Shown one piece after another: positions 36,054 through 53,614 of a stretch of 64,000 nt of DNA. Made by a program: the position numbers and the translations under genes. The notes under the pieces are model-generated. The model was not told where the DNA came from and made no database searches. It was given only the letters and a program-made list of their open reading frames with translations. Origin of the DNA: a virus; the IMG/VR virus record IMGVR_UViG_3300031715_000001, positions 42,689 to 106,688 of that record; one strand, given 5' to 3'. The number at the start of each line of letters is the position of its first letter. Position 1 is the stretch's first letter.

Positions 36054-36335
36054 TTATTGTGCGGCGGCCGCAACACCGGAGTAAGGCACGGCCCGGAGCG
36101 CGAATCCCAGTTCAGGAAACAGTTTCTCCTTCACGGCTTCCGCATCCAACTTGCGCGCGAAGCGCAGCGCATCGGCTCGCACTCGCGTAAAGGAATCCTT
36201 CTTCAAGCCGCATCCGGACCAGTACACTTGATCGCCTTCGATAATCCAGCCGAGTTCGGCCCCAGGGGCGAAAGGCGGCTCATAAGGCGCTGGCTTCTTA
36301 GCGGCGCGCTTTCTCTTTGCGGGTTTCTTTGTCAT
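36054..36335 (-). CDS. cassette D cargo 1, basic hypothetical protein
   Basis: MTKKPAKRKR...; its stop TAA lies in the element's inner motif. Confidence 0.5.
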   Translation of the reverse strand: MTKKPAKRKRAAKKPAPYEPPFAPGAELGWIIEGDQVYWSGCGLKKDSFTRVRADALRFARKLDAEAVKEKLFPELGFALRAVPYSGVAAAAQ

Positions 36336-36362
36336 TGGCTCGAATCCTGGATAATAGTCAGC

Positions 36363-36695
36363 ATGGCTGATTGTGAAAACTGCGCTGTTCTCCAGGCTCG
36401 AATTGACAACCTTTTGACCCTTCTCCAGGAGCAAATAGCGAAACTTGGAGACCAAACGCTAAAGAGCCCTTCCTGGGAAAGGAGAATGCGGATATTAAAG
36501 GCTGTCATGAACAATGACGCACCGGAGCGCGGTCAGCTTAGAGAAGACTTAGTGAGGGCGGTTGCTGATCGTGACATGAGTCATATCTTCCACGAATCCT
36601 TAGCGATAGCTGTCGTTGCGGCGCATGAACTCGGCATGACGCCGGAGCACCTCTACAAAGCTGTAAGGCCAATGTGGGAGGCCGAGCATAGATAA
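36363..36695 (+). CDS. cassette D cargo 2, CxxC coiled-coil hypothetical protein
   Basis: MADCENCAVLQARIDNLL...; its stop is the TAA of the ATAACC motif. Confidence 0.55.
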   Translation: MADCENCAVLQARIDNLLTLLQEQIAKLGDQTLKSPSWERRMRILKAVMNNDAPERGQLREDLVRAVADRDMSHIFHESLAIAVVAAHELGMTPEHLYKAVRPMWEAEHR

Positions 36696-36774
36696 CCGAA
36701 CTGCTCGGGCGAAGATCGCCTTTTGATTGCGTGCGGGTTCCAGGAGCACGCAAGGCGTACCAGAACCTAAATAT

Positions 36775-37269
36775 TTATTGGCTCATGTCCTGCAACACCG
36801 TTCCGTCGTACAGCAGATCGATGATCCCGCCCACTCCATAAGCTGTTGCGATATTCAAGGCCGGATTGAAGTGCGACCGTATTGGGATTGCCGGGCCGTC
36901 GTTGTACGCGCACGAATTCACGCCGACCTGCAAGGTATGGGCGAGCTTGATCCGGAACTCGACACCCACCGCCAGAACAGGTCCAGAGCCTTCGGGACAC
37001 GCGATTGCGTTATTCGCGCCCGTCTCGGTGAGGATCACATGCGGGAACTCGGTGAGCCCGGTCACCGTCTGGTCGACCATCAGGAGCAACTGGTAAAGCG
37101 ACATCACCACTTGGTGCACGCGGTCGATGTACTGATACCACGGGATGCTGAAGACGTTCTCGGTAAGAGTACTCTTCGGGTCAGTCGATGGCGCGAGGAC
37201 TTGATCCTCGTAATTAGGCATCGGAGTCAATTGAATGACTGTACCCGGTGTGATTGCAGTAGTACTCAT
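36775..37269 (-). CDS. virion structural protein (downstream of gp10-like gene)
   Basis: 164-aa ORF in the operon direction; FSIPWYQYI and IDLLYDGT motifs resembling fibre-like modules. Confidence 0.55.
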   Translation of the reverse strand: MSTTAITPGTVIQLTPMPNYEDQVLAPSTDPKSTLTENVFSIPWYQYIDRVHQVVMSLYQLLLMVDQTVTGLTEFPHVILTETGANNAIACPEGSGPVLAVGVEFRIKLAHTLQVGVNSCAYNDGPAIPIRSHFNPALNIATAYGVGGIIDLLYDGTVLQDMSQ

Positions 37270-37381
37270 CTCAAGTATTCAATGATCTTTGGGGGTTCAC
37301 GCTTGTCTCAGCACGCGAGGAGAGACTGGGCTTTGGTTCGTGCGCGCTCCGGGCCGTTGGGATTAAGATTGAGCTATCGAC

Positions 37382-37711
37382 GTGGTTCGGATGACTCCCA
37401 CACACAACCCGGTCGCAAATGTGGCCGTGCTCGCTGGCAACTTCGTTCAGTTCGAATGGTACGTGAAAGAGTATATCCGGGACTCGCCTAAGATCGAAGT
37501 GGCCTACTTCCACGGCTTTTCCGTCCAGGTGGGAGACCGTCGCTTTATCTACGCCAGCGACCGATACCGAATCGTTGGGCTTCCGTTGGACGACGTGGTC
37601 TGTGTCGGAACGTGGTATGAGAACCCAGACGCCATCGAAATCAAGAACACTGCCGAGCTGTACCGACGGAGACCTATCGCCTCTTCCCCAATAAACGAAC
37701 CGCTCGGTTAA
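37382..37711 (+). CDS. antisense cargo, hypothetical protein
   Basis: 109-aa ORF between a degenerate element (~37331-37363) and an inner motif (CAGTTCCGTTTAT, ~37719-37732). Confidence 0.55.
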   Translation: MVRMTPTHNPVANVAVLAGNFVQFEWYVKEYIRDSPKIEVAYFHGFSVQVGDRRFIYASDRYRIVGLPLDDVVCVGTWYENPDAIEIKNTAELYRRRPIASSPINEPLG

Positions 37712-37729
37712 GCGCACGAGCAGTTCCGT

Positions 37730-38023
37730 TTATCGGCCCGGAATCGGGTTCCATCCGCAGGGCTCCTTGCATTCCACAATCGTGATGGTCTTCCAGTGTT
37801 GTCCTAATTCGCGCTTTACAAGATTCACCACTTGTCGCGGCGAATCGCACCATGTGACACCTCCGAAGCCAGGAGAATCCATGAGCACCTCGTATCGTCG
37901 GCTCGGCCTTGATCCAGGGCCAATCGGCAGTGCCCAAGCTCCCATCATCAACAGGAGTGCGGCAAGGGTGGCGAAGAAAACCTGCCGATAAACGGACCGG
38001 CCGATCGAAGACTTGATCTTCAT
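37730..38023 (-). CDS. cargo, small membrane or secreted protein
   Basis: Hydrophobic segment VFFATLAALLLMMGAWAL; stop TAA falls in the inner motif. Confidence 0.4.
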   Translation of the reverse strand: MKIKSSIGRSVYRQVFFATLAALLLMMGAWALPIGPGSRPSRRYEVLMDSPGFGGVTWCDSPRQVVNLVKRELGQHWKTITIVECKEPCGWNPIPGR

Positions 38024-38120
38024 TGCGCCCGTCGGCCAGAAGCGAAGATGGGTGCCCCTGCTTATCCGCAGGACAAGGCCGGGTATCCAGGATGCGAGTG
38101 GACGAGGAGGGCGCAAAACG
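37988..38120 (-). repeat. long-loop hairpin element, right end of cassette E
   Basis: ATAAACGGACCG...tgcgccc-(78-nt loop closely similar to that at 19261-19335)-gggcgca-AAACG. Confidence 0.8.
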
Positions 38121-38147
38121 GAAATATGGTATACCATACTTCACTTC

Positions 38148-39902
38148 TTATGAAGGCCCCAATTCAATCAAGGCATTATAAATAGCTTTCAGTTGTCGAG
38201 CCGTACTCTTGATCTTAAAAGTCTTTGAAATCCAGAAAGCACCGAGTGAGTACCACACAGGCTTAGGATCGAAGACTTGAGGATTAGTCTGCGAGTTCTG
38301 CGTCATATCGGTGATCTCGTCCGGCGTCAGGAAAGTTCCCTCATACTCTCCAGATCGTCCAAGCGATGCAGCTCCGGCATCTACCCAGGTGCGCGCACCG
38401 TCCGATGACGTGGCCAGGTTGACGGTGGGGATCAGCGGCTTTCCATCCAGCCCCAAGTTAGCGGGGTCGATTGTTCCTAACTCGCAATCGAGGGCAAAAC
38501 ATTTGATGTTCTGCATTTCGAGGTTGGAATTGATGTGCGGGGAAATCCGCATCACCGGGATATCGACGCCGTCGTCCTGGTCGAAGTCGGGCGAAACCTG
38601 CCAGATCTTGCCCGAAGCGAAGCCCGCGACCAAGTCCATCCTGGTCCCGCTCGGCCAGGTGACGTGTACCCGAAAAGTTCCCGGGTCGGCCCCATATACT
38701 TCGTCCTCGGGCGTCTCCGGACCCATTTCCGACCACACACCGCCCGCCGTCTGGTCCCATTCCCAGGTTCGATTCGCGGTTGGAAAGTCAATGCGGTAAA
38801 TCGAGTGCCCGCCCTCGAGGTACGTCGAGCCAATGGCATCGTAGACGAGAGGATAGCTTCGCATGGCGTTTTCGATGCCGTGATCGGAAATACGCACAGG
38901 CGCTCCACCAGCGGAGTGAACGATCTGATCCTCGCCCCGCAGCGTGCTAAGCAGGCTGCAGATCGATCCATCGGCGAGCTTCGCCACCGACCACGGCGCG
39001 GATGTCCCGGCGTTGATATTGCGCCCGCTCACTCTGGTGAAAGGGAAATCGGCGTTTCCGGAGTCGCCCCAGACTTCGGTTTGGCTCGTGTCTCCGATCA
39101 AAGCCAATTGTCCGTTGACTTCTTGGATGGCCCCAATATTGTCGATCGAGCCCGATTTGTCCGCGAAATCGAGCTCGTCCCAGGTGCTTCCGTCCCCGAG
39201 CGCTGAGAGACGAAACTGCTTGGTGTTGGGTTGAGAGACGATGAAGTAGTCGTCGATAAATTCCGGCATGACGCCGGTCAAATACTCGGTGCCGGCCTGA
39301 TAAGCCACGTCCTCGATCATTCCGGCGTCTTTGTCCAACACTAGGTCCGTGGCGTCTGTAACGGCGATGACGTTGTAGAGAGTCGTGCCGATCATGAACA
39401 GATCGCCTGGCAGGACATCGCCGCCCGCGCCCTGGAAAAGCGCGCCCGATACCCAACTGACCGCGTTGCCGTTTACGTTTACTGTTCCGGTCGCATAGCT
39501 GATGATCGGACGGAAGAGTGAGACTCCGTTGTAGAGGTACACATTGCCGGCGCTGCACACCAAAAGCTGTAAGCCGTTGGCCCGCATGGTGGCCGGATTT
39601 CCACCTACCGCGATCGGTCCGGCCGCGTGGCTGGAAGTGTCTTCGAATATCTCGTAGAGCATCCCCCCACAAACGACGAAGACCCTGGTCTTGTTGGCCC
39701 ACATCCCTTGTACGCCGGCGCCGGGTGTTTTAAGAGTGGTGAAGAGCTTTTTGCCGGAACGCGGGAATAAGGTGAAGGGACTTTTCGAAGCAGGATCCAT
39801 ATTCTGCTCGATCCGCATGTTTACGGTACGCGTGGCCGAGGCTCCTCTAGCCCGTGAGTTGTAGGAGCCAGCGCAGAAATTAGCTATGGGCGTCAGTGGC
39901 AT
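38148..39902 (-). CDS. tail hub / packaged-DNA stabilization protein (P22 gp10-like)
   Basis: 584-aa beta-propeller-like protein; DGSTWDELDFA, EVWGDSG.ADFPF, RISDHGIE and SSDGARTW motifs; gene order. Confidence 0.8.
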   Translation of the reverse strand: MPLTPIANFCAGSYNSRARGASATRTVNMRIEQNMDPASKSPFTLFPRSGKKLFTTLKTPGAGVQGMWANKTRVFVVCGGMLYEIFEDTSSHAAGPIAVGGNPATMRANGLQLLVCSAGNVYLYNGVSLFRPIISYATGTVNVNGNAVSWVSGALFQGAGGDVLPGDLFMIGTTLYNVIAVTDATDLVLDKDAGMIEDVAYQAGTEYLTGVMPEFIDDYFIVSQPNTKQFRLSALGDGSTWDELDFADKSGSIDNIGAIQEVNGQLALIGDTSQTEVWGDSGNADFPFTRVSGRNINAGTSAPWSVAKLADGSICSLLSTLRGEDQIVHSAGGAPVRISDHGIENAMRSYPLVYDAIGSTYLEGGHSIYRIDFPTANRTWEWDQTAGGVWSEMGPETPEDEVYGADPGTFRVHVTWPSGTRMDLVAGFASGKIWQVSPDFDQDDGVDIPVMRISPHINSNLEMQNIKCFALDCELGTIDPANLGLDGKPLIPTVNLATSSDGARTWVDAGAASLGRSGEYEGTFLTPDEITDMTQNSQTNPQVFDPKPVWYSLGAFWISKTFKIKSTARQLKAIYNALIELGPS

Positions 39903-39933
39903 GGATCGGAAAAGCTAGAATTGGGCTTAGGTT

Positions 39934-40325
39934 CGTTTCGCAGCGAACTGAGGTTTCGCTGCGGAGGGGCTGTGAGCAAGAACTTTCCACTGACCGCACG
40001 AAAGTACGATCTTTATGTAGCCTTGGATGAGGCGGTAGAAGTTGGCCGCGTACTATTCGCAGGGCGCAAGCGGCGTTTCGTGATTAAGGAGCTTATGTCT
40101 CGCGAGGCGTGGGATGCCGAAAGAGCCATTCCGCCCCAAGGCGATCCGAAGGGGCGCTGGCTAGGGCCTGGAAAATGTGACGACAAGCCCAATGATGAAA
40201 GCCTGAGCTACAACCCGTCCGCAGGCATTCCAGAAGAATGCAAATTCTTCTATGGGGCGGACTACCTACCTCAGGACCTCAGGACTAATCCCCAACGTGC
40301 CCGTGCTCCGGGAGGGCACGAGACG
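39934..40325. mobile_element. hairpin-flanked cassette F (left 39934-39963, right 40287-40325)
   Basis: Left CGTTT-cgcagcg-aactgaggttt-cgctgcg; right AATCCCCAA-cgtgccc-gtgctccggga-gggcacg-AGACG. Confidence 0.7.
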
Positions 40326-40343
40326 GACCACAGGCCTGATTGA
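39972..40343 (+). CDS. cassette F cargo, hypothetical protein
   Basis: GGAGG RBS and GTG start right after the left hairpin; reads through the right hairpin. Confidence 0.55.
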   Translation: MSKNFPLTARKYDLYVALDEAVEVGRVLFAGRKRRFVIKELMSREAWDAERAIPPQGDPKGRWLGPGKCDDKPNDESLSYNPSAGIPEECKFFYGADYLPQDLRTNPQRARAPGGHETDHRPD

Positions 40344-40528
40344 TGATGTGCCCTCGCTGCCGTAGGGAGCTTTCCCTTGGCGAAGTCCACATCGCCTGCT
40401 CTCCAGCGATTACCATGGCGTGCCCGATATGCCGCGCCGAAAATGACCGTACACGCTCAAAGTGCCATCACTGCGAATCCGAGCTGCATCCCAAGCGGCA
40501 GGTTCAGCATGTGACCACTGATCACTGA
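40340..40528 (+). CDS. small zinc-ribbon protein
   Basis: CPRC, CPIC and CHHC motifs; coupled to the upstream stop. Confidence 0.5.
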   Translation: MMMCPRCRRELSLGEVHIACSPAITMACPICRAENDRTRSKCHHCESELHPKRQVQHVTTDH

Positions 40529-41262
40529 TATCTGTTTCCAAGATATACGTTACTTCTTCGGTCTCCCACCGCCCAGTCGAGTTCTCTCTTTAATGGCCGG
40601 TCGTTGTTCATCTTGATCAGTGCGAGTGATCGGATGGCATTGGCTCGCGTGTCTTCCGACATTTGCTGTTCGTTGGGATAGCGCGCGGCCAATTGTACGG
40701 CTAAATTGGACTCGATCATCATCTGGTAGCCGTTGGGATAAGTCAGTTCGGCGTCGCCAGTGGCATCGATTTGCGAAAGCGGCTGCTCGAGATACAACGC
40801 TATCTGGTTGGCATCGGTCGGAACGAATACCAAGTGCAGGGTACCAAGGGGCGGCTGAGAGCGTTCGTAGTAGAAGCATCTTGGATAACTGATAGTCTGG
40901 GTCTTTAATGTCCAGCCCTGCCATTCATCGAGCGTGAGTGGTTGCATCCGATATTCAGGGTAGGGCGCGTTGGCTGTGACGGTTACGAGTACCCCGGCGC
41001 GTTCGATCTGGTTCGGTGCGACCGGCATATCGAAGTCTCCGCCCGGTCCTACCAGATAATCGCCCTGGTTCGAAACCAGAGGAAACAGCATACGTGCGAC
41101 GTGCGAGACGGTGAAGCCGTCGGCGGCTAGTTGATCGACGAAGCGGTTGTAGAGCTGCCGGCATTCCTCGTTCTGATCTGGAGAGAGGATGGTCTGCTCG
41201 GTTTTGACAATCCCTGCGTCTCTAAATGCGCCGTAGAATAATTGAGTGATCGATATGCCCAT
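40522..41262 (-). CDS. head-to-tail adaptor (P22 gp4-like), copy 2
   Basis: TQLFYGAFRDAGI...YLVGPGGDF...YPNGY..MIESNLAVQLAARY pattern; upstream of the gp10-like gene. Confidence 0.7.
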   Translation of the reverse strand: MGISITQLFYGAFRDAGIVKTEQTILSPDQNEECRQLYNRFVDQLAADGFTVSHVARMLFPLVSNQGDYLVGPGGDFDMPVAPNQIERAGVLVTVTANAPYPEYRMQPLTLDEWQGWTLKTQTISYPRCFYYERSQPPLGTLHLVFVPTDANQIALYLEQPLSQIDATGDAELTYPNGYQMMIESNLAVQLAARYPNEQQMSEDTRANAIRSLALIKMNNDRPLKRELDWAVGDRRSNVYLGNRYQ

Positions 41263-41296
41263 GAGGATTTAGGAGAAACTGAAATGACGTTAGGAG

Positions 41297-41796
41297 CGTT
41301 TCGTGCCGCACTGAATTAGCGACACGGTCGGAATATGATCATCGTTCGTCTATCTCTGTGGCAAAAGCTAAAGTTACTTTTCGGTTGGTACCTGCAGATC
41401 GAGGAATGGCCAATCGGTCAGAGTTATTACCAGTACGTGCTAGGGCCTTGGGAAACACCGCGACAATTCAGGAGCCGGTGGCGGTGCGAGCGTTGCGGTG
41501 AATATATCGAAGGTGATCGTGATGGTCATAAGTGTGTTCCGCGTCGGCCTCCGTATAGTTCCTATGTTTACGGTGAAGGTGTTGTGCTCGCTGAGATCCT
41601 TAAAGTGGTAGGCAGGCGGGGTATTCAACTCCGTGACATTCAGAATCTCCCAGGCGTTCTCGAACAGGACTATTCGACAATTCAGGACAGGATTGAAGAA
41701 TACGAAAAGCAGATCGCCGTCCTGGAGACGATCAAATCGTCAAGTGTGCCCGACACAGATCCCCAACGTGCCCGTGCTCCAGGAGGGCACGAGACG
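41297..41796. mobile_element. hairpin-flanked cassette G (left 41297-41326, right 41758-41796)
   Basis: Left CGTTT-cgtgccg-cactgaattag-cgacacg; right GATCCCCAA-cgtgccc-gtgctccagga-gggcacg-AGACG. Confidence 0.7.
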
Positions 41797-41802
41797 GAAT
41801 AA
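41335..41802 (+). CDS. cassette G cargo, hypothetical zinc-binding protein
   Basis: 155-aa antisense ORF starting 9 nt after the left hairpin; CERC...HKC motif. Confidence 0.6.
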   Translation: MIIVRLSLWQKLKLLFGWYLQIEEWPIGQSYYQYVLGPWETPRQFRSRWRCERCGEYIEGDRDGHKCVPRRPPYSSYVYGEGVVLAEILKVVGRRGIQLRDIQNLPGVLEQDYSTIQDRIEEYEKQIAVLETIKSSSVPDTDPQRARAPGGHETE

Positions 41803-41810
41803 AGTTGAAT

Positions 41811-42206
41811 TTAATTCAGTAAGAACTGCTTGCTATTGGATGTCGTAATTGTCACCATTGCCCCGGCAGCGTGAGGGACGGCATTTGTTCCAAGGGGAAA
41901 GGCAACCGTTGGCCATCCCAGGGTGAAAGCGCGGATGACTGGAACATGCGAGCTGCCGATGCGCCAGCGCGAAGTGACCTGCATGTACTCCCGATCGATC
42001 TGAATCAACGTCGGCGTCGAATGGTGACAGCCTCCCGAGTCAGGATGCAAGATTCCTGTAGGGTCCGCGACAATGATGTAGTCCTCGGTGATTCCCACCG
42101 CGTTCGCCAGCACGGTCGTGTAGGTGTTGACACGGGTGACGGGTGGCGGAGGAGGAGGCGGCGCCGCTGGCTGCGAGAGATCGAAAACCAGCAGCGCCGC
42201 ATGCAT
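41811..42206 (-). CDS. small virion protein, paralog of 44096-44401
   Basis: TYTTVLANAVG...IQIDREYM...HAAGAMV motif. Confidence 0.55.
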   Translation of the reverse strand: MHAALLVFDLSQPAAPPPPPPPVTRVNTYTTVLANAVGITEDYIIVADPTGILHPDSGGCHHSTPTLIQIDREYMQVTSRWRIGSSHVPVIRAFTLGWPTVAFPLGTNAVPHAAGAMVTITTSNSKQFLLN

Positions 42207-42211
42207 GAGGT

Positions 42212-42739
42212 TCAGTACTGCGTGTACGAAATCATAATGTTCACGGTGCCGGCCGCGCTATTGGTAGCGCACAACGCGCTCCCCGCCGGCGTCTGAAATA
42301 GAGTTCCGATCCCCGAACCTAGGCCCCAAGGAGGCGCACTGGTCGAGAGGGGGAAGTTCCAGGTCGGCGTCAGCGTGGCGGTCGGAGTAGCGCACGCCGT
42401 ACCTGTTCCGGCGATAAATTTCAGGGTGGTGGCCGTCGAGGTAACCGAGCCCTGCACTGAAATCGCGCAGACCCGGATCGCCGTCGTCCCTGAGAGCGCC
42501 ACAATCTGCGTCGTGGTCGCAGTCGCCATCTGCAATTGCGCGGAGTTGTTGCAGACAGCGAGACCGGTCTGAAGTCCTGCGGCGTTGCCGGCGATATAGA
42601 TCGCCTTGGCAGGCACGGCGCTTCCTGTCGCACTACTGGCCGCGTCTACAACCGGGGCGGGTTGAGCGACGTTCAGATCCGCGCGGCACACTAAAAAGAC
42701 AACGAGCAGTGCGAGCGCCAGGCGCAAGGTCGATTTCAA
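42212..42739 (-). CDS. secreted structural protein
   Basis: Signal peptide MKSTLRLALALLVVFLVCRA; beta-sandwich-like mature region. Confidence 0.6.
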   Translation of the reverse strand: MKSTLRLALALLVVFLVCRADLNVAQPAPVVDAASSATGSAVPAKAIYIAGNAAGLQTGLAVCNNSAQLQMATATTTQIVALSGTTAIRVCAISVQGSVTSTATTLKFIAGTGTACATPTATLTPTWNFPLSTSAPPWGLGSGIGTLFQTPAGSALCATNSAAGTVNIMISYTQY

Positions 42740-42743
42740 AAGG

Positions 42744-43547
42744 TTACTCCCTGGTCAGTAAATGAAGGTTGAGGGCCGAAGCGGTGCCCGCGATCGCCGT
42801 GATGCCCGAGGCCATAACTACGCCGCCCAGGTCCATGCCGCCGTTGGCGCCGCAACCCATGTTGGAATTCGGGGGAATCGAGAAATCGCCGTTGCCGCCG
42901 ATCCAGATAATCGGAGTGCCGGTTTTATCCTGGATGCGCAGCGTGACGGCGGAGTTGGTGATGTTATTCACGAAGCATTCGACCACGCAGCCCGTGACGG
43001 AACTGACTGACGTCCCCGTGCTGACTGCCACTCCCACCGTGTTGTGAATAACGTAGGCAGTTCCAGTTCCGCTGCAGCCGGCTGGAAGGTTGAAGGTACT
43101 GCCCAGGATGTTCGCCCCGGCCGGGAGAGCGTTGGTGATGGCGGTTACCGCCGTGATCGTTCCGCTATTGACCACTACGCCGTTGGTGGTCCCAGCGGTC
43201 GTTTGATCGATGCCAAACTTCCCGGCGATGGCCGTGCCTGCGGTGAGCGCTACGGCATTGGTGGTGCCCGGCGTGGTCTGATCGATTCCGAACTTGCCCA
43301 GCAGGTTCGTACCGGCCGGGAGCGCGGCATTCACCTGTACGCCGTTGGTGGTGCCTGGTGTGGTCTGGTCGATGCCGAACTTGCCGGCCAGGGCGGATCC
43401 GGCCTGCAGGGTGACCGCCGAGCCTCCGCCGCCCGATTGATTCAACTGGCCCATGACCAGGCCCGCGCAAAGCAGCGAGACCAGCAGAGCGCTAACGATA
43501 AATTTCGGGCTCCTGAGAAGCGCCCGCGGCTGAATTCCGAATAGCAT
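42744..43547 (-). CDS. secreted structural protein with three GKFGIDQTT.GTTN repeats
   Basis: Hydrophobic leader ending VMGQ; beta-strand repeats (ALPAGTNLLGK type). Confidence 0.6.
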   Translation of the reverse strand: MLFGIQPRALLRSPKFIVSALLVSLLCAGLVMGQLNQSGGGGSAVTLQAGSALAGKFGIDQTTPGTTNGVQVNAALPAGTNLLGKFGIDQTTPGTTNAVALTAGTAIAGKFGIDQTTAGTTNGVVVNSGTITAVTAITNALPAGANILGSTFNLPAGCSGTGTAYVIHNTVGVAVSTGTSVSSVTGCVVECFVNNITNSAVTLRIQDKTGTPIIWIGGNGDFSIPPNSNMGCGANGGMDLGGVVMASGITAIAGTASALNLHLLTRE

Positions 43548-43559
43548 TGGTTTTACCTT

Positions 43560-44087
43560 TCAACTGTGGTCGTAATACACCGTGGCGAACACCCCGCAGG
43601 AAGCGTCATCGAAGTTTTCTACGGTGAGCCGAAAGAACGCTTCTGCCGGGATCTGGTGATAGTCCTTGTGAGGAGGTTCGTAGTCTTCGCTGGTACCGTT
43701 TGAAACCAGATAACCGAGGATCGTCTCGACGCCGCCTGAAACCGATTTGACGGTCCAGACACAATCGCGGCTGGAAGCAACGATGACCTTGGCCAGCTTT
43801 CCGCCCGCTGAAATGGCGGGGCAGTCGAAATTTTCAGAGCCCGCCGCCGCGAGAGTGCTATTGGAGAACACCTGAAAGGTCGGGTTCATGGGCCCGGCCT
43901 GGCGAACCACCGCGCCTCCGTCGGCTGAGCCCGGATCCACGGCGCGAACATCCTGCAAATCGCCGGCATTGGCACCTGCGATGCGTCCGCGTTCCCGGTA
44001 AACCAACTTGCCCGCGACTTCGAGCGAATCCGCATCGAGGCTTTTGCCCGGCCCGTCTTCCGGCAGTCCGATAACATCGTTGGCCAT
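43560..44087 (-). CDS. virion structural protein, hypothetical
   Basis: 175-aa ORF in the operon; LPEDGPGK..D...YRER N-terminal motif. Confidence 0.55.
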   Translation of the reverse strand: MANDVIGLPEDGPGKSLDADSLEVAGKLVYRERGRIAGANAGDLQDVRAVDPGSADGGAVVRQAGPMNPTFQVFSNSTLAAAGSENFDCPAISAGGKLAKVIVASSRDCVWTVKSVSGGVETILGYLVSNGTSEDYEPPHKDYHQIPAEAFFRLTVENFDDASCGVFATVYYDHS

Positions 44088-44095
44088 TTGGCTGT

Positions 44096-44401
44096 TTATT
44101 CGCGGCTATCAGTGGTCGTGATCATCACCGTAGCCCCGGCTGCGTGCACAACCACATCCGATCCTATGCTCGGTGCTTGCCAAGCCAGTCCGCGAACCAC
44201 CGTGACGATATTCGAGCCGAAGCGGTAGCGGGCGTCGACGGCCATATACTCCTGATCGATTTGGATAATGGATTGGATGGCGTTGTGAGCCCCGCCTGAG
44301 TCCGCATTTACAATTCCCGTTGGATTGGCGACGACGATGTAATTGTCCTGGAGGCCAACGGCGTTGAGCAGCGTCGTGGTATAAGTTTTGGTCGAGGGCA
44401 T
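44096..44401 (-). CDS. small virion protein, paralog of 41811-42206
   Basis: TYTTTLLNAVG...IQIDQEYM...VRG...HAAGATV motif. Confidence 0.6.
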   Translation of the reverse strand: MPSTKTYTTTLLNAVGLQDNYIVVANPTGIVNADSGGAHNAIQSIIQIDQEYMAVDARYRFGSNIVTVVRGLAWQAPSIGSDVVVHAAGATVMITTTDSRE

Positions 44402-44843
44402 CGTGTACGTTATTCCGTTTCAGCTCAACGCTCGCGAGTATTCTATCTTCGTGGTCCTGCAGGAGGAGGGCTTGAAGCGGATCCGCGCCTACGATCCGGC
44501 CCAGGTGAACGTGCAGGCGCTAGGCCCGGCGTTTACGCATCTGCGGCTGAAGGATATTCACGTCGGGTACGCCACTGATTCTGAAATCCGGGAGGTCCTC
44601 AGACTCGCTGAATTAGGGCGAGTGCAGGATGGCCTGAAGTGGCTATCCCGTGGTTTCGAGTTCAAGCCCGAATTCATACACCGTGGCGAACACCCCGCAG
44701 GAAGCGTCATCGAAGTTTTCTACGGTGAGCCGAAAGAACGCTTCTGCCGGGATCTGGTGATAGTCCTTGTCAAGCCCGAATTCGGGGATCACGACGGGCC
44801 GCCGTTGAGCCTGAAACGAAAGCCTGGGGAGCCCGCGCAGTGA
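44388..44843 (+). CDS. antisense cargo, hypothetical protein with a 36-codon templated insertion (start uncertain)
   Basis: Open ORF; 44676-44770 is a copy of 43575-43669. Confidence 0.5.
   Translation: MVEGIVYVIPFQLNAREYSIFVVLQEEGLKRIRAYDPAQVNVQALGPAFTHLRLKDIHVGYATDSEIREVLRLAELGRVQDGLKWLSRGFEFKPEFIHRGEHPAGSVIEVFYGEPKERFCRDLVIVLVKPEFGDHDGPPLSLKRKPGEPAQ
44662..44783 (+). repeat. 95-bp exact duplicate of 43575-43669 bounded by the direct repeat TCAAGCCCGAATTC
   Basis: Direct comparison; repeats at 44662-44675 and 44770-44783, 108 bp apart. Confidence 0.9.
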
Positions 44844-44856
44844 TACGCTTGCGAAT

Positions 44857-45123
44857 ATGCAACCAGCAACATCCGCTCCCAATGATCTGACGCGCGCTGA
44901 TCGTCTGACCCCCGCCATCGAGGAGGAGATCGTTCGACAATTCTCACCTCAAATCTGGAATGACGAACAACAGATCCGGGGTGGCCTCGTTCGGGACGCA
45001 CTTATTAAAGCGACGGGCGTCATCATCGCCAACGTTCCGCCTGGTCCCGATCGCACGGTGGCACTACGTAAGCTGCGTGAGGCACGAATGGACTGTAGTG
45101 TGGCAATCAGCTTGAACATATAA
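44857..45123 (+). CDS. small helical phage protein (Acb2/Tad1-like hairpin family possible)
   Basis: IIANVPPGPDRTVALRKLREARMDCSVAI resembles the P..RE.SLA.TKLEEA..W...AI pattern; stop lies in the ATAACC motif. Confidence 0.55.
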   Translation: MQPATSAPNDLTRADRLTPAIEEEIVRQFSPQIWNDEQQIRGGLVRDALIKATGVIIANVPPGPDRTVALRKLREARMDCSVAISLNI

Positions 45124-45183
45124 CCGGACTGCCGGGGCGGCGTCCGCTCTTCATTGCGCCCGTTGCCAGGAGGGCGCAAAACG
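45120..45183 (-). repeat. hairpin element (ATAACC type), right end of cassette H
   Basis: ATAACCGGACTG...tgcgccc-gttgccagga-gggcgca-AAACG. Confidence 0.8.
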
Positions 45184-45197
45184 AACCAAAGCCTTGA

Positions 45198-45959
45198 TCA
45201 CTGTCCCGGAACTACTGGTGTTCCATCACCCTTAGTAGGTCCAGCTAATGTTCTTGAAGATCCAAATGCTCCACTCAGTTTGTCATTATTGATCTGCTCT
45301 AACTTCTGAATTGCATCCTGATACTGTGCCGTCACTTCCGGGGTGACACTGAACCGGTAAGCGGGAGCTAGTGCGATCGTCAAACCGAGGCGCATCGGTA
45401 GGATATATTCAGTCGGAAAGTAGTTCTCGATCAGCTGCTGCTCGTCGCCTGGGGCAAAGGTGGTCAGCGGATTCCACTGCGCCTGCTTCAGGAATCCGTT
45501 GAACTGCGGGATGGGCGCGACATTGATGGTCGCAATCGGCACGTTGTAGTCGTAGAAATAATCCGTGGGCCCGTCCGGATCCTGGAGAGTCCTTGTCGTC
45601 AGGCTTCCAAACTGGGGCCGGGTCAGGATATTCAGCGGCCAGCGGCGCGCGGTTCCGACGATATACCAGACGGCCTGCACGTACACCGGCCTGGTGTAAG
45701 TGGGATTCGCGCCTCCGGTCTCGAAGTTTGGCGCAGCGCCGGCCCCCGGCCCGATCTGATAGCTCCCGACGCCCGCCGTGAGCGGATAAGAGACCTCGGG
45801 CACGAAGTTTAGCCGGAGCCTCGAGGCGGACCAGCTTTGCAGCATATCCGTCTGCGTTCGCATGGCGTGCGCGACACGTTGGCCGGACGGAGTCTGTCCG
45901 GGCGTGAGCGCGCCCACGTCAGAGAGCGAGTCGCTTATGAGGTCGAGTACAGAGGGCAT
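45198..45959 (-). CDS. head-to-tail adaptor (P22 gp4-like), copy 1
   Basis: LDLISDSLSDVGAL..GQTP...YQIGPG...FPTEY...LGLTIALAPAY pattern. Confidence 0.7.
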   Translation of the reverse strand: MPSVLDLISDSLSDVGALTPGQTPSGQRVAHAMRTQTDMLQSWSASRLRLNFVPEVSYPLTAGVGSYQIGPGAGAAPNFETGGANPTYTRPVYVQAVWYIVGTARRWPLNILTRPQFGSLTTRTLQDPDGPTDYFYDYNVPIATINVAPIPQFNGFLKQAQWNPLTTFAPGDEQQLIENYFPTEYILPMRLGLTIALAPAYRFSVTPEVTAQYQDAIQKLEQINNDKLSGAFGSSRTLAGPTKGDGTPVVPGQ

Positions 45960-46014
45960 CGGGAGCTATCGCGACCACTGCGGTTCGGACTGTTCAGCTT
46001 TTGTTTTGTCGGCT

Positions 46015-46569
46015 TTACTTGTTCGCATCGGCCGCTCTCTTGTCCGCATCGGCCGCTCTCTTGTCCGCATCGGCCGCTTTCTTTTTCTCGGCGTTCAATT
46101 GGTCCTCGCAGTCGGGATCCTTTCCCGGTTGAAAGTCTTTTTCCGGTAGAGGGGGGTTGGCGAGGGGCGGCATGAAACGGCCTTGTTGGGTCGGCGCCGG
46201 CACGAGAACAGCCTCGGGAGCGAGGCGAAGAGGAGGTTCCCCTTCGGGCTGCACGGGCGCTGGGACCACTGGCGCCGTGTAAGCCGCCCGGATCGCCGCG
46301 CCGATATTTCTGCCGATGGACCCGGTTTTGGGGAACTGCTCGGCTATCGCTACGTCGCGGCCCATCTGGTCCAGAACTCCCTGGTTGTAGCCGCGCTGAT
46401 AATCTTCGTCGGCCAGTGCCAGGCGCGAGGCGGTGTCGGTAATGGCACGCTCGCGCGTGAATTGTTTGTAGTCTTCCGGATTCACGCGGCTGTGCTCGAG
46501 TTCATCCTTGACGAGCCGGGGTTTGCCTGGGTTTTGGGGATCCGGGATATAGCGGGGATGATGTTCCAT
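46015..46569 (-). CDS. hypothetical protein with C-terminal KRAADAD repeats
   Basis: AAGGAG RBS; 21-bp tandem repeat at about 46024-46078. Confidence 0.6.
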   Translation of the reverse strand: MEHHPRYIPDPQNPGKPRLVKDELEHSRVNPEDYKQFTRERAITDTASRLALADEDYQRGYNQGVLDQMGRDVAIAEQFPKTGSIGRNIGAAIRAAYTAPVVPAPVQPEGEPPLRLAPEAVLVPAPTQQGRFMPPLANPPLPEKDFQPGKDPDCEDQLNAEKKKAADADKRAADADKRAADANK

Positions 46570-47007: not shown

Positions 47008-47028
47008 TCGGATGTTCCTCGGTTGAAG

Positions 47029-47073
47029 AAAAAGGGGGAGAGAGCGGCGACTCGGTCGGATCGCCACTCTCTC
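47029..47073 (-). terminator. rho-independent terminator downstream of the capsid and decoration genes
   Basis: On the minus strand, 13-bp stem gagagagtggcga/tcgccgctctctc followed by CCCCTTTTT. Confidence 0.6.
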
Positions 47074-47124
47074 GCGTAGGGGAAGGACCCCGGCACTCTG
47101 CAGCGACGTTAGTCGGTGCCGGCC

Positions 47125-47799
47125 TTAGAATACGACAGTGCCTTCGCTATAGACGGTGTAAGCCGGATTGATCACGTTGGTGATCACCACCCGGAAGCGT
47201 TTGCTGTTGTTCTGCGCCACGGTAACGGTGCCGACAATCGTCGCGCCCGTACCAGCCACCAAGGTAATGGCGAACGCGCCGGCCGAAGAGTTGAGAATCG
47301 TGAACTCGAAGCTCTGGTCGATGAAGGGCGTGCAATAAGACCCGATCGAGGCCAGCAGAAGCGTTGCCGTCGGCAGGGTATAGTTGGCCGCGGCGGTAGG
47401 AACCCCGAGAATCAGGATGCCCAACAGTTGCTCGGGCGTCAGAGTGACGGTGCCGATCAGATTGGCGATGTTGACGGTCTCGAATGAGGGCGTGAGGCGG
47501 CTGTAAAGCCCGAGACCTTGCTCCATGAAGGGCGGAAAGTCTTTTTCAGCTCCAGCCCAGACCAGCGCGCCGGCGCCGTGATAGCGGGCCGCCGATCCGA
47601 GTACCCCGCGGTTGGTCGCTACGATGAAATTCACGGGATCGACGATGGAATCGACTTCCAGGCCTTCGCGTCCGATCCAGAGGATGGTCCGGTTGGATTT
47701 GTTAGGTCCGGGAGCGGTAATGCCAGTGAGCGACCCCAGGGTGACGTTCTTGTCGGTGGGCTGAATGGTCGAGGTGAGAGAGGTGACTACGATAGACAT
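47125..47799 (-). CDS. capsid decoration/cement-like protein
   Basis: Immediately after the capsid gene with AAGGAG RBS; NYTLPTA...F.FTILN...ITLVAGTG motif. Confidence 0.6.
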   Translation of the reverse strand: MSIVVTSLTSTIQPTDKNVTLGSLTGITAPGPNKSNRTILWIGREGLEVDSIVDPVNFIVATNRGVLGSAARYHGAGALVWAGAEKDFPPFMEQGLGLYSRLTPSFETVNIANLIGTVTLTPEQLLGILILGVPTAAANYTLPTATLLLASIGSYCTPFIDQSFEFTILNSSAGAFAITLVAGTGATIVGTVTVAQNNSKRFRVVITNVINPAYTVYSEGTVVF

Positions 47800-47845
47800 G
47801 ATTGGTTGTTCTCCTTATTTGCTGTCTTTTCTTCAAGCCCGCTTT

Positions 47846-49105: not shown

Positions 49106-49192
49106 GTGAGGTCTCCCGAGTTCAGGCGCGCTTCAAGCGGCCCGAGAATTGGGGAGCGAAGGATCGAGTCTTCGGTAGCCTGGGGACGAACC

Positions 49193-50473: not shown

Positions 50474-50507
50474 TTTCCTATGTCAAGAGTGAGGCATGAA
50501 ACGCGGT

Positions 50508-50762
50508 TTACCTAGGATTGGCCGGTAATACATGCCGATGTGAATTGGCTTGTATCCGCGCTACTTCCGAGTGCATGACACGCGCGATCAGTCCAATTTC
50601 GGAATCCTGGACGTGCATGCGATGGTCCCGGCCGTCCCGCCAGCGATGGGAGCCGCATTCCGGACACCGCCGGCACTCCGGGCGTCCATTGCGTTTCTTC
50701 CACCAGTGGCGGCAGATGTGACAAGTACGTAGTAATGAATCGATCATCAGGCGTCGTTCCAT
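50508..50762 (-). CDS. zinc-ribbon protein
   Basis: CHICRHWW...RCPECGSHRW motif. Confidence 0.5.
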   Translation of the reverse strand: MERRLMIDSLLRTCHICRHWWKKRNGRPECRRCPECGSHRWRDGRDHRMHVQDSEIGLIARVMHSEVARIQANSHRHVLPANPR

Positions 50763-50986
50763 CCATCGCTGCGTTTGCGCCGCTTCTTCACACGGAGTCT
50801 CCGGTAGCCGTATTTCTGCTTGGGCGGCACTGTGTGCTCCGGTAAATCCGATTCCTTGGTTGCGGCGAAGTCGTGGAGTTGCTGGTGTGGCATCTTCAGC
50901 AATCCTTTATTGCGTGCGTAGAGTTGCTCCGGATGGTGCTCCGCGATCGCCATCACGGTTCGCTGTGCTTTGCTTATGGATGGCAC
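50747..50986 (-). CDS. DUF3008-like small phage protein
   Basis: MPSISKAQR...LHDFAATKESDLPE pattern; AAGGA RBS. Confidence 0.65.
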   Translation of the reverse strand: MPSISKAQRTVMAIAEHHPEQLYARNKGLLKMPHQQLHDFAATKESDLPEHTVPPKQKYGYRRLRVKKRRKRSDGWNDA

Positions 50987-51085
50987 GGTGTTTTTCCTTC
51001 TGCCACTGAGATTAAGTACTGCGAAAAACCGTGTTCGGTACTAATTGGAGATGACACGCGGGTTAAAAGCGCATAGCATTGAGCA

Positions 51086-51892
51086 ATGCCAATCCAGAAT
51101 ACGAAGGTCTGCACGAAGTGTGGTCGCGAATTGCCCACATCATCTTTCTGGGTTACCAAAACGCGGAACAACTATATTCACGCACGCTGCAAGGACTGTG
51201 ACATTAGCGCCAAGCGCTCCACCGTGCGAGAGTTTAATCGTTCCGCCGCCCTCTGTGAGAATGGGCACGACGATTGGCAAGTCAACGCGAATGGATTCCG
51301 CTATTGCGTAACGTGCAAGCGTGCTGCTGGTAAGCCGCTATCCAGAAAAGAGCACAACAAACGGCAGGCTCAAAGAAAGCGGAATCTTGCTTCGAAACGC
51401 GGTCACCCATTGTGCGCTTGTGGTTGCGGCGACCGGGTGGTTATCGAAAGTTCTAGATTTCTCAAAGGACACGGACGGGATCCTTGGACTTTATGCGCAA
51501 ATGGGCATTTGCTTTCGGAGACTCGGAAAAGGCACCCCAACGGGGATACCTTTTGCTCTGTTTGTAGAAATGGGCGCTCGAAGAAGTTTGCGGAGGATCA
51601 TAGGGATAGGCTTCCAGCGTACAACCGAAAATCCAAGATCAAACGATCTTATGGCCTGACCACGCGAGACTTTGAGGCCCTCCTCGAATCCCAGGGCGGG
51701 GTATGCGCCATCTGCGGCGGCCAAGATTGGGGTTTTCGCGGTCCCCATATCGATCATGACCATAAGACCGATAAGATTCGCGGCGTTCTCTGCCATCGGT
51801 GCAACACAGGGCTTGGACTCCTGCGCGATAGCGAAGATATTCTAATGAAGGCCATATCCTATTTGGCCAGCCGAAATCAGCGAGCCGCCTGA
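51086..51892 (+). CDS. free-standing endonuclease VII-family HNH endonuclease
   Basis: C-terminal QGGVCAICG...HIDHDHKTDKIRGVLCHRCNTGLG motif; several CxNGH/CxxC modules. Confidence 0.85.
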   Translation: MPIQNTKVCTKCGRELPTSSFWVTKTRNNYIHARCKDCDISAKRSTVREFNRSAALCENGHDDWQVNANGFRYCVTCKRAAGKPLSRKEHNKRQAQRKRNLASKRGHPLCACGCGDRVVIESSRFLKGHGRDPWTLCANGHLLSETRKRHPNGDTFCSVCRNGRSKKFAEDHRDRLPAYNRKSKIKRSYGLTTRDFEALLESQGGVCAICGGQDWGFRGPHIDHDHKTDKIRGVLCHRCNTGLGLLRDSEDILMKAISYLASRNQRAA

Positions 51893-51919
51893 AACCGCCC
51901 TTGCCGGGGAGAAGAGGCA

Positions 51920-52345
51920 TTACGCCATCGTCACGCCTTGGAGGTTGACGACTTTCCACTTTCCGTTGTATGCCACTAGCTCGATGCCGCCGCCCGCATT
52001 AGCCGCAAACGTCGCGGTGTTCACATGCGCTGCTCCGTCCTGGAATAGTCCCGTGGCGGTGATAACGTGGGCTTGGGCGGTATCGCTGGTGAAGACCAGC
52101 CTGACTCCGTCGTCCCCATTGGCTGACTGCGCGCCAGCGGTAGGGGCCGGAAGCGTGATGGCGCAGGCCCCGGCGGCGTAGGTGATCACGTAAACCGCCG
52201 AAACATGCTGATTGATGAGCGCCGTAGAGAGCGGGAGCGGAATTGGGAAATAAGGCACTTGCCCGAGAGCAACCGCCTTGACTACCTTGATGGCATCGTT
52301 GGCGATAACACCGCCATCTTGCTGGACTTTCACATTGAGGGACAT
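51920..52345 (-). CDS. virion structural (decoration-like) protein
   Basis: AAGGAG RBS; AITLPAPTAG...IELVAYNGKWKV motif. Confidence 0.6.
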   Translation of the reverse strand: MSLNVKVQQDGGVIANDAIKVVKAVALGQVPYFPIPLPLSTALINQHVSAVYVITYAAGACAITLPAPTAGAQSANGDDGVRLVFTSDTAQAHVITATGLFQDGAAHVNTATFAANAGGGIELVAYNGKWKVVNLQGVTMA

Positions 52346-52512
52346 TTTAGATTTCTCCTTTGAATTCGAATTGGGATGAGTAGGGGCTTTGCGGGCGCCA
52401 CGTCGGCGCAGCACGCAGTCTATGGGTTGCTTCATTTATTTCACGAACCGAGATCTGAGGGGCACCCATCTTCGGTCGATGCCGCCGAGCGCGTTGGGGA
52501 TTTGCGGTCCGG

Positions 52513-52812
52513 TTACCTGGGCTTGGTGGTCCTACAGTTGCAATCGAAGGTGTCCCAGATGGCGCAGTCTTTGTGATGCGTGACCATACCGTGTGCAGCG
52601 GCGCGCTCTACCTGACGCGCCGCCGCTCCCAGAAAAAGCGCTGTCGTGGTGGGGTCTTCTGAAACCGCGATGCCGTGCATGTCGATCTCGCCGTTGCTCA
52701 TGAAGGCGTGGTCGTAGCCGGCTGCTTTCAGTTTCAGTTTGATCTCCTGGTATGCATCCGAAGAGACTTCCAGTACCACGTAGGTGTGTGTGTTATGCAT
52801 CGTTCCATCCAT
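52513..52812 (-). CDS. conserved-looking phage hypothetical protein
   Basis: THTYVVLEVS..AY.EI..KL..AGYDHAF...IDMHGIA. Confidence 0.55.
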   Translation of the reverse strand: MDGTMHNTHTYVVLEVSSDAYQEIKLKLKAAGYDHAFMSNGEIDMHGIAVSEDPTTTALFLGAAARQVERAAAHGMVTHHKDCAIWDTFDCNCRTTKPR

Positions 52813-53272
52813 CGCTGTGTTGCTTTTTTACGCGTATAACCGCGTGCGCTTTTCGTCCGCCCGCAATCAACTGAATCAGAGCCGGGGTCGTCAGCTTAGC
52901 GCGCTTCGGATCCGCTTCCCAGAGATTGCAGCAACCCATTGGGTCGATCTTGCCCGGTGTTGCCCCCGGTGACCGCTTATCCACGCGCTTGCAATCGTCG
53001 GGCGCTTCTAATTCCTCGCAACGCCGGCACCCGAACCCTGGTTTATTCTCGACGTATCCGGTTTCGATTCGGGTCTTGTCGTGATTGCCTTCGATCCGTC
53101 CCTTGCTTAGATCTTTCCAGTCGTTGCATCCGCCGAATGGCTTCACGTCTTCATCAGACTTTACGTAGTCGGTGCACTTCCCTTTAGAAGAGATGAAGGC
53201 ACACTCACTACAGTGCAGTTCGCATCCGGAGGCAAGAATGTACCCGGCTTCTGCTTTCGTGAGTTTTTCCAA
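52793..53272 (-). CDS. tandem HiPIP-like (putative Fe-S) Cys-rich protein
   Basis: Two copies of GY...CxxC...C...P.G.C..W. Confidence 0.5.
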   Translation of the reverse strand: MEKLTKAEAGYILASGCELHCSECAFISSKGKCTDYVKSDEDVKPFGGCNDWKDLSKGRIEGNHDKTRIETGYVENKPGFGCRRCEELEAPDDCKRVDKRSPGATPGKIDPMGCCNLWEADPKRAKLTTPALIQLIAGGRKAHAVIRVKKQHSDGWNDA

Positions 53273-53278
53273 TGAGGT

Positions 53279-53614
53279 TTATTCCGTCTCGTGCCGCCCT
53301 GGAGTTGCGGCACGTTGGGGATTCCCGCCTGCCGTGGGGGCCTGTTTCTCTCTTGTGACTTCGGCGAGTTTGCCAGCCTCTTCGTCATCGTACTTAAACG
53401 CGCTCCACTCACAGTGAGCTTTTGCGGCTTCGAGCGTCAGATACGATCTATCCACGCCTGCGACTCTTAGATCTGTGACGAACAGGAGGTGCCCGAAACG
53501 GGGCTCGCAAATCGTGGCGTAACATAGCTGGCTGTTGCGGTCGACTAGATAGTGGACGGTGTACCGCTCTCCATCGGCATCGACCGGCGTAGCCTGCAGC
53601 CATTCAACTTCCAT
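53279..53614 (-). CDS. cassette I cargo, hypothetical protein
   Basis: 111 aa; ends by reading through the hairpin element (NPQRAATPGRHETE). Confidence 0.55.
   Translation of the reverse strand: MEVEWLQATPVDADGERYTVHYLVDRNSQLCYATICEPRFGHLLFVTDLRVAGVDRSYLTLEAAKAHCEWSAFKYDDEEAGKLAEVTREKQAPTAGGNPQRAATPGRHETE
53285..53323 (+). repeat. hairpin element (TTGGGGATT type)
   Basis: CGTCT-cgtgccg-ccctggagttg-cggcacg-TTGGGGATT. Confidence 0.8.

Follow-up and report, generated by a model that had tools for sequence, protein, structure and literature searches.

Why should unrelated small genes of one virus end in the same way? This question is raised by a stretch of 64,000 nucleotides (the window), bases 42689-106688 of the 106,688-bp IMG/VR record IMGVR_UViG_3300031715_000001 (G000), which is rated 97 % complete. 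Several small open reading frames (ORFs) of this uncultured soil phage end inside copies of a short hairpin element, either on a stop codon that belongs to the element or with a peptide encoded by it. The initial annotation had described both kinds of ending, together with the scarcity of flanking DNA around the ORFs, and had proposed an RNA-templated or ORF-precise capture step or, alternatively, a functional role of the shared tail. The borrowed stops and tails and the close packing are borne out here; the capture step and the functional tag are not. Probably the endings are a tolerated side effect of a palindromic repeat at the boundaries of accessory genes in soil phages, of the kind seen with the Rickettsia palindromic elements (RPEs).

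The hairpin element encodes the shared tail

The element consists of a pyrimidine tract, a covarying GC stem of 7-8 bp, a loop containing CAG (usually as CTCCAGG) and the purine tail RAGACGGA. In the short form AATCCCCAAC stands immediately 5′ of the stem, and its complement is the TTGGGGATT of the initial annotation; half of the short-form copies have a core without a stop codon in any frame. The long form, found in this phage only, has an extra inner module about 20 nucleotides (nt) upstream, (TAA/TGA/CAA)(A/C/G)CGGA-N4-CCGGG. Seventeen copies from the window were aligned to give a covariance model (R1), with which the whole record was searched at a cut-off of E ≤ 0.001. This gave 41 copies on both strands, spread across the whole 107 kb and often arranged as inverted pairs, one of them (58135-58256) ‘empty’. 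Other phages were found by a pattern scan of viral contigs, in which a first, stricter element pattern had no matches, followed by an R1 filter: 21 matches in G001 (44 kb), 23 in G002 (86 kb), 18 in G003 (39 kb), three in G005 (45 kb) and two in G004 (a 19-kb fragment). The working set comprises 106 copies from the six genomes G000-G005, and gene calls outside the window were made in this analysis with a codon-usage model trained per genome. A pattern scan of bacterial genomes gave at least 120 stretches; all of the 80 listed were rejected by the covariance model at E ≤ 0.001, and no apparent bacterial home of the element was found among these 80.

Three ORFs, ending at 40343 (plus strand), 41802 (plus strand) and 53279 (minus strand), had been reported to cross the short-form hairpin in one frame and to share a tail. 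This is the case, and a fourth ORF, ending at 33483, has been added to them. ORFs and element copies are as follows (aa, amino acids).

53279-53614, minus strand: cargo gene, 111 aa; four homologs elsewhere; conserved core ends near residue 70-80; tail NPQRAATPGRHETE
53280-53330, minus strand: short-form element; accounts for the final 13 codons of ORF 53279-53614 and for its stop region
39921-40343, plus strand: cargo ORFan, 140 aa from TTG or 123 aa from GTG 39972; crosses the element at 40280-40330 in the shared frame; tail NPQRARAPGGHETDHRPD
40280-40330, plus strand: short-form element, AATCCCCAAC followed by the hairpin and GAGACGGA; best R1 match, 59.3 bits
41335-41802, plus strand: cargo ORF, 155 aa; tail DPQRARAPGGHETE; coding score dips in codons 31-80
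41751-41801, plus strand: short-form element, 98 % identity over 40 nt to the copy at 40288-40327
33483-34016, minus strand: cargo ORF, likely of 150 aa with Met28 as start (177 aa with TTG); crosses the element at 33490-33540 in the shared frame; tail AQRAETSVRHETFQV

Translated in one of its frames, the hairpin gives the tail, (N)PQRAxxPGxHET. The origin of the tail in the element is seen in ORF 53279-53614, of which three homologs were found in the protein collection (P0002-P0004) and one on a metagenome contig (L038), with a core common to all. In the best alignment the similarity can be traced to about TAGG, just 5′ of the element's AAT CCC CAA, and it fades within about ten residues of the repeat edge. 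The initial annotation had asked whether free-standing homologs stop before the shared tail. All four lack the tail, and each ends in its own unrelated 10-20 residues; at L038, the one metagenome locus at which the DNA context was read, the element is absent and the stop of the homolog overlaps the ATG of the next gene. Since the homologs end in unrelated tails, the native C-terminus of ORF 53279-53614 has been replaced by 13 residues encoded by the element.

The same peptide is also found inside a conserved protein. A two-domain protein of about 180 aa, without a Pfam or PHROG match, is present in G001, G002, G003 and G005.

L016:17904-18467 (G001) and L019:12533-13048 (G002): two-domain protein with the hairpin in the interdomain linker, in the shared frame
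L023:2358-2891 (G003) and L025:7029-7511 (G005): two-domain protein without the hairpin

The linkers of G001 and G002 read AQRAATPVPHET and AQRAATPLPHET, with AQRAATP(V/L)PHET in frame. The orthologs of G003 and G005 have a shorter linker, in which neither R1 nor DNA alignment detected an element. In place of a database search for the 13-residue tail, a census of tails was taken over the six phage records. It yielded the same-frame peptide in sixteen ORFs of four phages, the upstream parts of which are unrelated except for one ortholog pair and one ORF with two copies. The latter, a 251-aa ORF of G003 (35827-36397, in L024), carries one same-frame copy internally and one at its C-terminus.

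Constraint on the hairpin and choice of the reading frame

Conceptual translation of the 106 copies in the shared frame gives RA(A/E/R)(T/A)P..(H/R)ET-like peptides throughout. About 85 of these copies are not read by a credible ORF in that frame and encode the same RA(A/E)TP..(H/R)ET peptides, and the residues that vary are those altered by compensatory substitutions in the stem (e.g. RARAPGGH, RAATPGRH, RAETPVQR). Because copies that are not translated encode the peptide and covariation of the stem exchanges its residues, the constraint lies on the nucleic acid and not on the peptide. In one 396-nt fragment, looked at with regard to coding constraint, the substitutions were few.

The called genes that read through the element are nevertheless distributed unequally over the three frames (12:3:3, n = 18, with five of the six phage records mapped), and their upstream parts are mutually unrelated. 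The bias towards the shared frame has p = 0.004 if the frames are taken as equal and p = 0.013 if their openness is corrected for, the shared frame being open in 100 of the 106 copies and the two others in 83 and 81; in the window by itself three of three ORFs use it (p = 0.11). Peptides of the shared frame are the most hydrophilic and contain less cysteine and fewer hydrophobic residues than those of the other two, and a filter for harmless tails, which the bias may reflect, would explain why this frame predominates.

The frame bias (12 of 18), the openness of the frame and the appearance of the tail on unrelated small proteins of four phages could also be read in favour of a functional C-terminal tag, QRAxTPxxxET, serving degradation, packaging or binding of a partner, with the element as its carrier. 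Such a tag is very unlikely. The copies outside credible shared-frame ORFs encode the same peptide, and its variable residues match the stem substitutions exactly. Moreover, the sequence after ET is different every time, with stops 6 to 57 nt past this anchor, the same peptide lies within a linker and not only at C-termini, and the homologs of ORF 53279-53614 function with unrelated tails.

Cargo ORFs and their support

The tails would need no explanation if the ORFs that bear them were not genes and their frames were open merely because the element is poor in stop codons. In this direction point the low coding scores (about 10 bits) of the ORFs ending at 40343 and 41802, for which no full-length homologs were found, and the weak coding support of the ORFs ending at 36695 and 37730, neither of which was picked by the gene caller. 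Yet ORF 53279-53614 and ORF 44857-45123 have homologs, G000 contains a paralog of ORF 33483-34016 (54366-54815, 30 % identity, E 7e-18), the protein of G001 and G002 is conserved on both sides of its in-frame element, and the tails are contained in public gene calls. That the endings are an artefact of annotation is therefore highly improbable.

The support differs among the individual ORFs. Those ending at 40343 and 36054 are ORFans, both with positive coding scores, which in ORF 36054-36455 are positive throughout; a gene call in the protein database (P0006) starts at GTG 39972 and includes the tail of ORF 39921-40343. The coding score of ORF 37730-38137 is ambiguous, and its residues 1-38 overlap a long-form copy of the element. 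For ORF 41335-41802 homology is limited to residues 1-48. Of the seven matches, six are free-standing proteins with a length of 51-68 aa and the seventh is a 99-aa protein aligned over its residues 44-91, and the ATG at 41335 is backed by homologs that begin with MII(V/I). PHROGs and Pfam gave weak matches at most for the seven ORFs. With tblastn nothing was found among cultured phages for ORF 44857-45123 or ORF 36054-36455, the scan of viral contigs revealed no relatives of ORF 36054-36335 or of the ORF 53279-53614 family, and word-indexed protein searches with ORF 41335-41802 and ORF 39921-40343 returned the query alone.

Stops on the inner module

The second kind of ending concerns the long form. 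Four ORFs, ending at 36054 (minus strand), 36695 (plus strand), 37730 (minus strand) and 45123 (plus strand), had been noted to stop on the TAA of ATAA(A/C)C, and all four stops are present in the sequence. The features concerned are listed here.

36054-36455, minus strand: cargo ORF starting at TTG (133 aa) or at ATG 36335 (93 aa); ends in AAAQ on the element TAA
35988-36058, minus strand: long-form element, a 51-nt hairpin core (35988-36037) and the inner module ATAAACGGA-N4-CCGGG; its TAA, 36054-36056, is the stop of ORF 36054-36455
36363-36695, plus strand: cargo ORF of 110 aa if it starts at ATG 36363, perhaps shorter; runs divergently to ORF 36054-36455; ends in AEHR on the TAA of AGATAACC
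36691-36762, plus strand: long-form element, inner module and core 36712-36762; inverted partner of 35988-36058
37382-37711, plus strand: ORF, 109 aa; crosses AATAAAC in another frame and ends in PINEPLG, with its stop on GGTTAA
37730-38137, minus strand: cargo ORF, ends in IPGR on the TAA of GATAAAC; likely start Met39 (38023), giving 97 aa with a hydrophobic N-terminus
37690-37732: two inverted inner modules without a hairpin core; convergent ORFs on either side; together an imperfect palindrome, about 16 bp, read directly
44857-45123, plus strand: cargo ORF, 88 aa; ends in AISLNI on the TAA of ATATAACC
45119-45188, plus strand: long-form element, inner module and hairpin core 45139-45188
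59832-60224, minus strand: long-form element (core 59832-59882) and gene 59883-60224, which crosses AATAAAC in another frame and ends in FTNKRNTR, with its stop on GGTAA

In the 20 long-form copies the triplet in question is TAA in 14 (in one displaced by a base), TGA in three and CAA in three, and the TAA closes a credible ORF at three long-form copies and at one solo inner module (37730). Genes 37382-37711 (plus strand) and 59883-60224 (minus strand) cross the motif in another frame and stop 15-16 nt further on at GGT(T)AA; one further gene stops 8 nt before a long-form motif. Four of the six co-oriented ORFs that reach the motif thus end on the TAA, as against an expected third, and since this gives p of about 0.1 (calculated by hand) the TAA stops are no commoner than chance.

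Two functions of the inner module were considered and rejected: a selected TAA stop, in view of the 14:3:3 distribution of TAA, TGA and CAA and of the four credible ORFs ended, and a translational stop in three frames, as all three frames are closed in three of the 20 copies.

ORF 44857-45123 is the single TAA stop that can be compared with a relative. Its homolog in a viral contig (L039 1998-2246, 49 % identity) ends two residues later, in AITHDGKY. As this end differs, the ORF stops within two residues of its natural end and has had its last residues replaced.

Gene packing and ribosome-binding sites

The majority of genes in this region lie on the minus strand, and small ORFs, many of them on the plus strand, are wedged between virion genes, which were judged by size and synteny. 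The cargo ORFs are indeed surrounded by hardly any DNA of their own, as the initial annotation had stated, and their stops and tails come from the repeat. In the mapped genomes 18-19 of the 35 genes that enter a copy from its 5′ (cargo) side cross the core, the lower number resulting from removal of one read-through gene that starts inside an element. By comparison, 34 of the 43 genes that approach from the 3′ (outer) side on the other strand stop before the core, 22 of them within −2 to +13 nt of its end. The 5′ sides of the G000 copies face cargo and their 3′ sides conserved genes; outer junctions therefore spare the neighbours, while inner junctions cut the cargo.

Elements also lie at the starts of two tail-bearing ORFs.

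39929-39979, minus strand: element; on the plus strand its pyrimidine tract appears as GGAGGGG, 3 nt ahead of the GTG start (39972) of ORF 39972-40343
41292-41342, minus strand: element; contains the ATG start 41335 of ORF 41335-41802, 10 nt from the stem base

In the ORFs ending at 40343 and 41802 the start codon thus stands at a distance of 10 nt from the stem of the element to its left, and the complement of the pyrimidine tract occupies the Shine-Dalgarno (SD) position, as GGAGGGG-CT-GTG in ORF 39972-40343 and as GGTCGGAAT-ATG in ORF 41335-41802. With element sequence at the start and at the end, these two ORFs are bounded by the element on both sides. About a dozen further genes in the other phages have the complement of a pyrimidine tract (GGAGG, GGGGA) ahead of the start codon. 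In G001 and G002 (L015-L022) the purine tail (GGAGGA, GGAAGA) is often followed by an ATG at SD-like spacing. These motifs suggest that the element provides ribosome-binding sites to either side.

Such sites invite the explanation that the element couples the translation of adjacent genes, the hairpin and the pairing of tract and tail hiding the ribosome-binding site of the next gene until read-through opens it; read-through would then be selected for, with the peptide tail as its price. It would fit the frequent start behind the purine tail in G001 and G002 (e.g. GGAGGA-N5-ATG), the stop of ORF 39921-40343, which overlaps the start of the CxxC...CxxC ORF 40340-40528, the stop of ORF 53279-53614, 7 nt ahead of the next start, and the crossing of the core by more than half of the co-oriented upstream genes. 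However, coupling would not depend on the frame and leaves the 12:3:3 bias unexplained, ORF 41335-41802 crosses its hairpin towards a convergent gene with no co-oriented gene downstream, and many copies are oriented opposite to all neighbouring genes. Coupling is thus unlikely.

The small ORF next to the 39921-40343 cassette deserves a remark of its own. ORF 40340-40528 (plus strand, 62 aa) has a zinc-ribbon pattern, CPRC...CPIC; its start overlaps the stop of ORF 39921-40343 (TGATTGATGATG) and its own stop abuts the convergent 246-aa gene.

The cassette itself sits between virion genes for a 246-aa and a 584-aa protein, which in distant relatives are about 120 nt apart, and it is therefore an insertion. 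Short fragments of relatives, at low depth, were present in two soil-metagenome runs, in which the junction at 40248-40499 was confirmed; among the listed sequencing runs that contain the region none is an RNA run. A soil-metagenome contig matches 33316-33475 and continues with 33 nt of an element copy in the opposite orientation, most like the copy at 45139-45188, and then with sequence foreign to the window, which suggests that a relative has a different cargo at the 33475 site.

Capture of cargo and mobility enzymes

A dedicated mechanism that copies single ORFs, for instance from mRNA, and places them between two half-elements would account for cargo trimmed to an ORF, with its start 10 nt from one hairpin and its C-terminus within the other. 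This is the capture step that had been proposed, and it is extremely improbable. Joins truncate or lengthen the ORFs: ORF 53279-53614 is short of roughly 10-20 native C-terminal residues, whereas ORF 41335-41802 exceeds its free-standing homologs by about 100 residues. The inverted pair 35988-36058/36691-36762 encloses the divergent genes 36054-36455 (minus strand) and 36363-36695 (plus strand), which cannot derive from one mRNA, and another unit contains two genes. No reverse transcriptase was found in the 97 %-complete genome of G000, and Y1 transposase (PF01797) had no match there. The absence of these enzymes, joins that are imprecise in every testable case and the divergent pair all argue against RNA-templated or ORF-precise capture. 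A Y1 enzyme encoded by the host could still act on the element.

A single tyrosine recombinase, of generic type, is encoded by G000; it lies 11 kb upstream of the window, scores 33.5 bits on NF040815 (cut-off 220 bits) and matches no integron-integrase model. Four of five element-bearing phages have no tyrosine recombinase: a Phage_integrase domain was not detected in G001, G002, G003 or G005, though three of these carry 18-23 copies.

Origin of the borrowed ends

The side effect of the repeat may have arisen as follows. Through insertion of the element or recombination at it, cargo DNA would become attached to the element's inner (5′) side; the join, which has no exact position, would fall close to the 3′ end of an ORF, and trimming under the tight packing of the phage genome would follow. 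Translation would enter the element and end at the first in-frame stop, which could be the TAA that opens the long-form inner module, in a second frame the GGT(T)AA 15-16 nt further on, or, in short-form copies, a codon just past the hairpin, whereby (N)PQRAxxPGxHET would be added. The residues of this peptide are dictated by the demands of the hairpin as nucleic acid, and selection would do no more than filter the fusions that survive. Genes that point away from the element may use the complementary strand of its pyrimidine tract as ribosome-binding site, and as the element can provide such a site, a cargo ORF can be bounded by it on both sides. We infer this order of events, the spread of the element by transposition or by recombination, and the filter for tolerance.

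Several points weigh against this explanation. Among the three ORFs for which the initial annotation gave the tail, two lack full-length homologs, and for one of these two there is no homolog of any length. Viral contigs and the soil-metagenome runs yielded no close relative with an empty site, so that neither insertion junctions nor a target duplication could be defined, and no transposase or recombinase able to move the element was identified, Y1 being absent from G000 and four phages being devoid of a tyrosine recombinase. Furthermore, the frame bias is moderately significant and relies on the codon-usage gene calls made here, which could have other causes than a filter for tolerance, several being conceivable. 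The modest bias leaves small room for a function of the tail or of translating the hairpin. A more general role of the hairpin as ‘gene adaptor’ of a group of soil phages, in which any ORF between two copies would obtain its ribosome-binding site from one copy and its stop or C-terminal peptide from the other, and in which the preferred frame would reflect a selected function of the peptide or of translating the hairpin (as tag, degron or coupling switch), is distinctly unlikely.

The endings show how ORFan accessory genes of phages can find a place among essential virion genes while bringing hardly any DNA with them. In annotation they are a warning, since similar C-terminal peptides on unrelated small phage proteins may be derived from a repeat and not from common ancestry, and the frame bias offers a simple handle on what makes an added peptide tolerable.

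Repeats and paralogs in the structural module

Some further repeats were observed among the neighbouring genes. A perfect 95-nt direct repeat occurs at 43575-43669 and 44676-44770; its second copy lies inside ORF 44388-44843 (plus strand) and duplicates the 3′ end of gene 43560-44087 (minus strand). A soil-metagenome contig joins 44399 to 44855 and skips ORF 44388-44843. Two pairs of virion genes look paralogous, 40522-41262 and 45198-45959, whose 246- and 253-aa proteins match the same gene in relatives, and 41811-42206 and 44096-44401, whose 131- and 101-aa proteins are alike by eye. This arrangement suggests that part of the structural module was duplicated as a segment and that cargo lies between the two copies. 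Tandem repeats are found in two minus-strand genes, at 43167-43403 (units of 75-87 nt, in 42744-43547) and at 46018-46083 (three units of 21 nt, in 46015-46569).

Comparison with known systems

Integron cassette genes often end within the TAAC of the attC R″ box, and from this the initial annotation had drawn an analogy. In both cases a structured, imperfect palindrome follows directly after an ORF and an inner TAAC can overlap its stop. The analogy fails in other respects. The attC consensus is RYYYAAC for R″ and GTTRRRY for R′ (PMC12901181), whereas the inner motif of the present element is (C/A)(A/G)ATAA(A/C)C, with a fit limited to TAAC, and its outer end is RAGACGGA and not GTTRRRY. Integron cassettes are arrayed in one orientation downstream of attI and Pc; here the elements are scattered over both strands, often as inverted pairs, and no integron-type tyrosine recombinase (IntI) lies by the array.

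Like the repetitive extragenic palindromes (REPs) of the REP/BIME and REPIN-RAYT systems, the element is a short GC-rich hairpin of high copy number that is frequently found in inverted pairs where genes end. Unlike them it occurs in phage genomes and overlaps coding sequence: 18-19 of the 35 co-oriented genes cross the core and two orthologous proteins carry it internally, so that it is not extragenic, and G000 has no Y1/RAYT gene. A MITE has terminal inverted repeats and a target-site duplication, and filled sites can be set against empty ones; inverted pairs occur here, among them the ‘empty’ pair at 58135-58256, and the search for a close relative with an empty site gave none from which a duplication could be defined.

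The nearest analogue in phages is the PeSL (promoter-early stem-loop) cassette of T4-type phages. PeSLs are composite intergenic motifs that begin at the upstream stop codon and flank ORFans, and their shuffling is thought to proceed by homologous recombination without a dedicated recombinase (PMC2839356, PMC4122927). Conserved motifs flank ORFan accessory genes and start at an upstream stop codon in both cases, and the present element likewise borders ORFan or near-ORFan cargo which is inserted among conserved genes and differs from one relative to another. However, a PeSL contains a sigma-70 promoter and a working terminator, whereas the hairpin here has no T-run. A consensus scan of 33000-46000 gave 8 promoter-like sites against 6.2 ± 2.7 in shuffled sequence and 15 terminator-like sites against 11.4 ± 3.1, none of which coincide with hairpin cores. 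PeSLs are, in addition, direct repeats in one direction of transcription, as opposed to the inverted pairs common here, and their translation has not been reported.

Also among the closest analogues are the RPEs, palindromic repeats of about 150 bp that are found in frame in unrelated genes (Ogata et al. 2000, as reviewed in PMC10969869). In both systems a small palindrome stands in frame inside or at the end of unrelated genes and adds a short tolerated peptide, which is set by the palindrome as nucleic acid, while orthologs free of the repeat exist; the likeness extends to intragenic fusions of MITE, ERIC and BOX repeats. The phages show the same two traits, an in-frame repeat in a conserved ORF with repeat-free orthologs and one peptide on unrelated genes. 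They differ from Rickettsia in that the element is phage-borne and not chromosomal, measures about 50 nt as against about 150 bp, is translated chiefly as C-terminal tails as against internal loops, and also brackets whole accessory genes, to which it can supply a ribosome-binding site. A nucleic-acid repeat can thus rewrite the C-termini and linkers of viral proteins, as RPEs do in Rickettsia.

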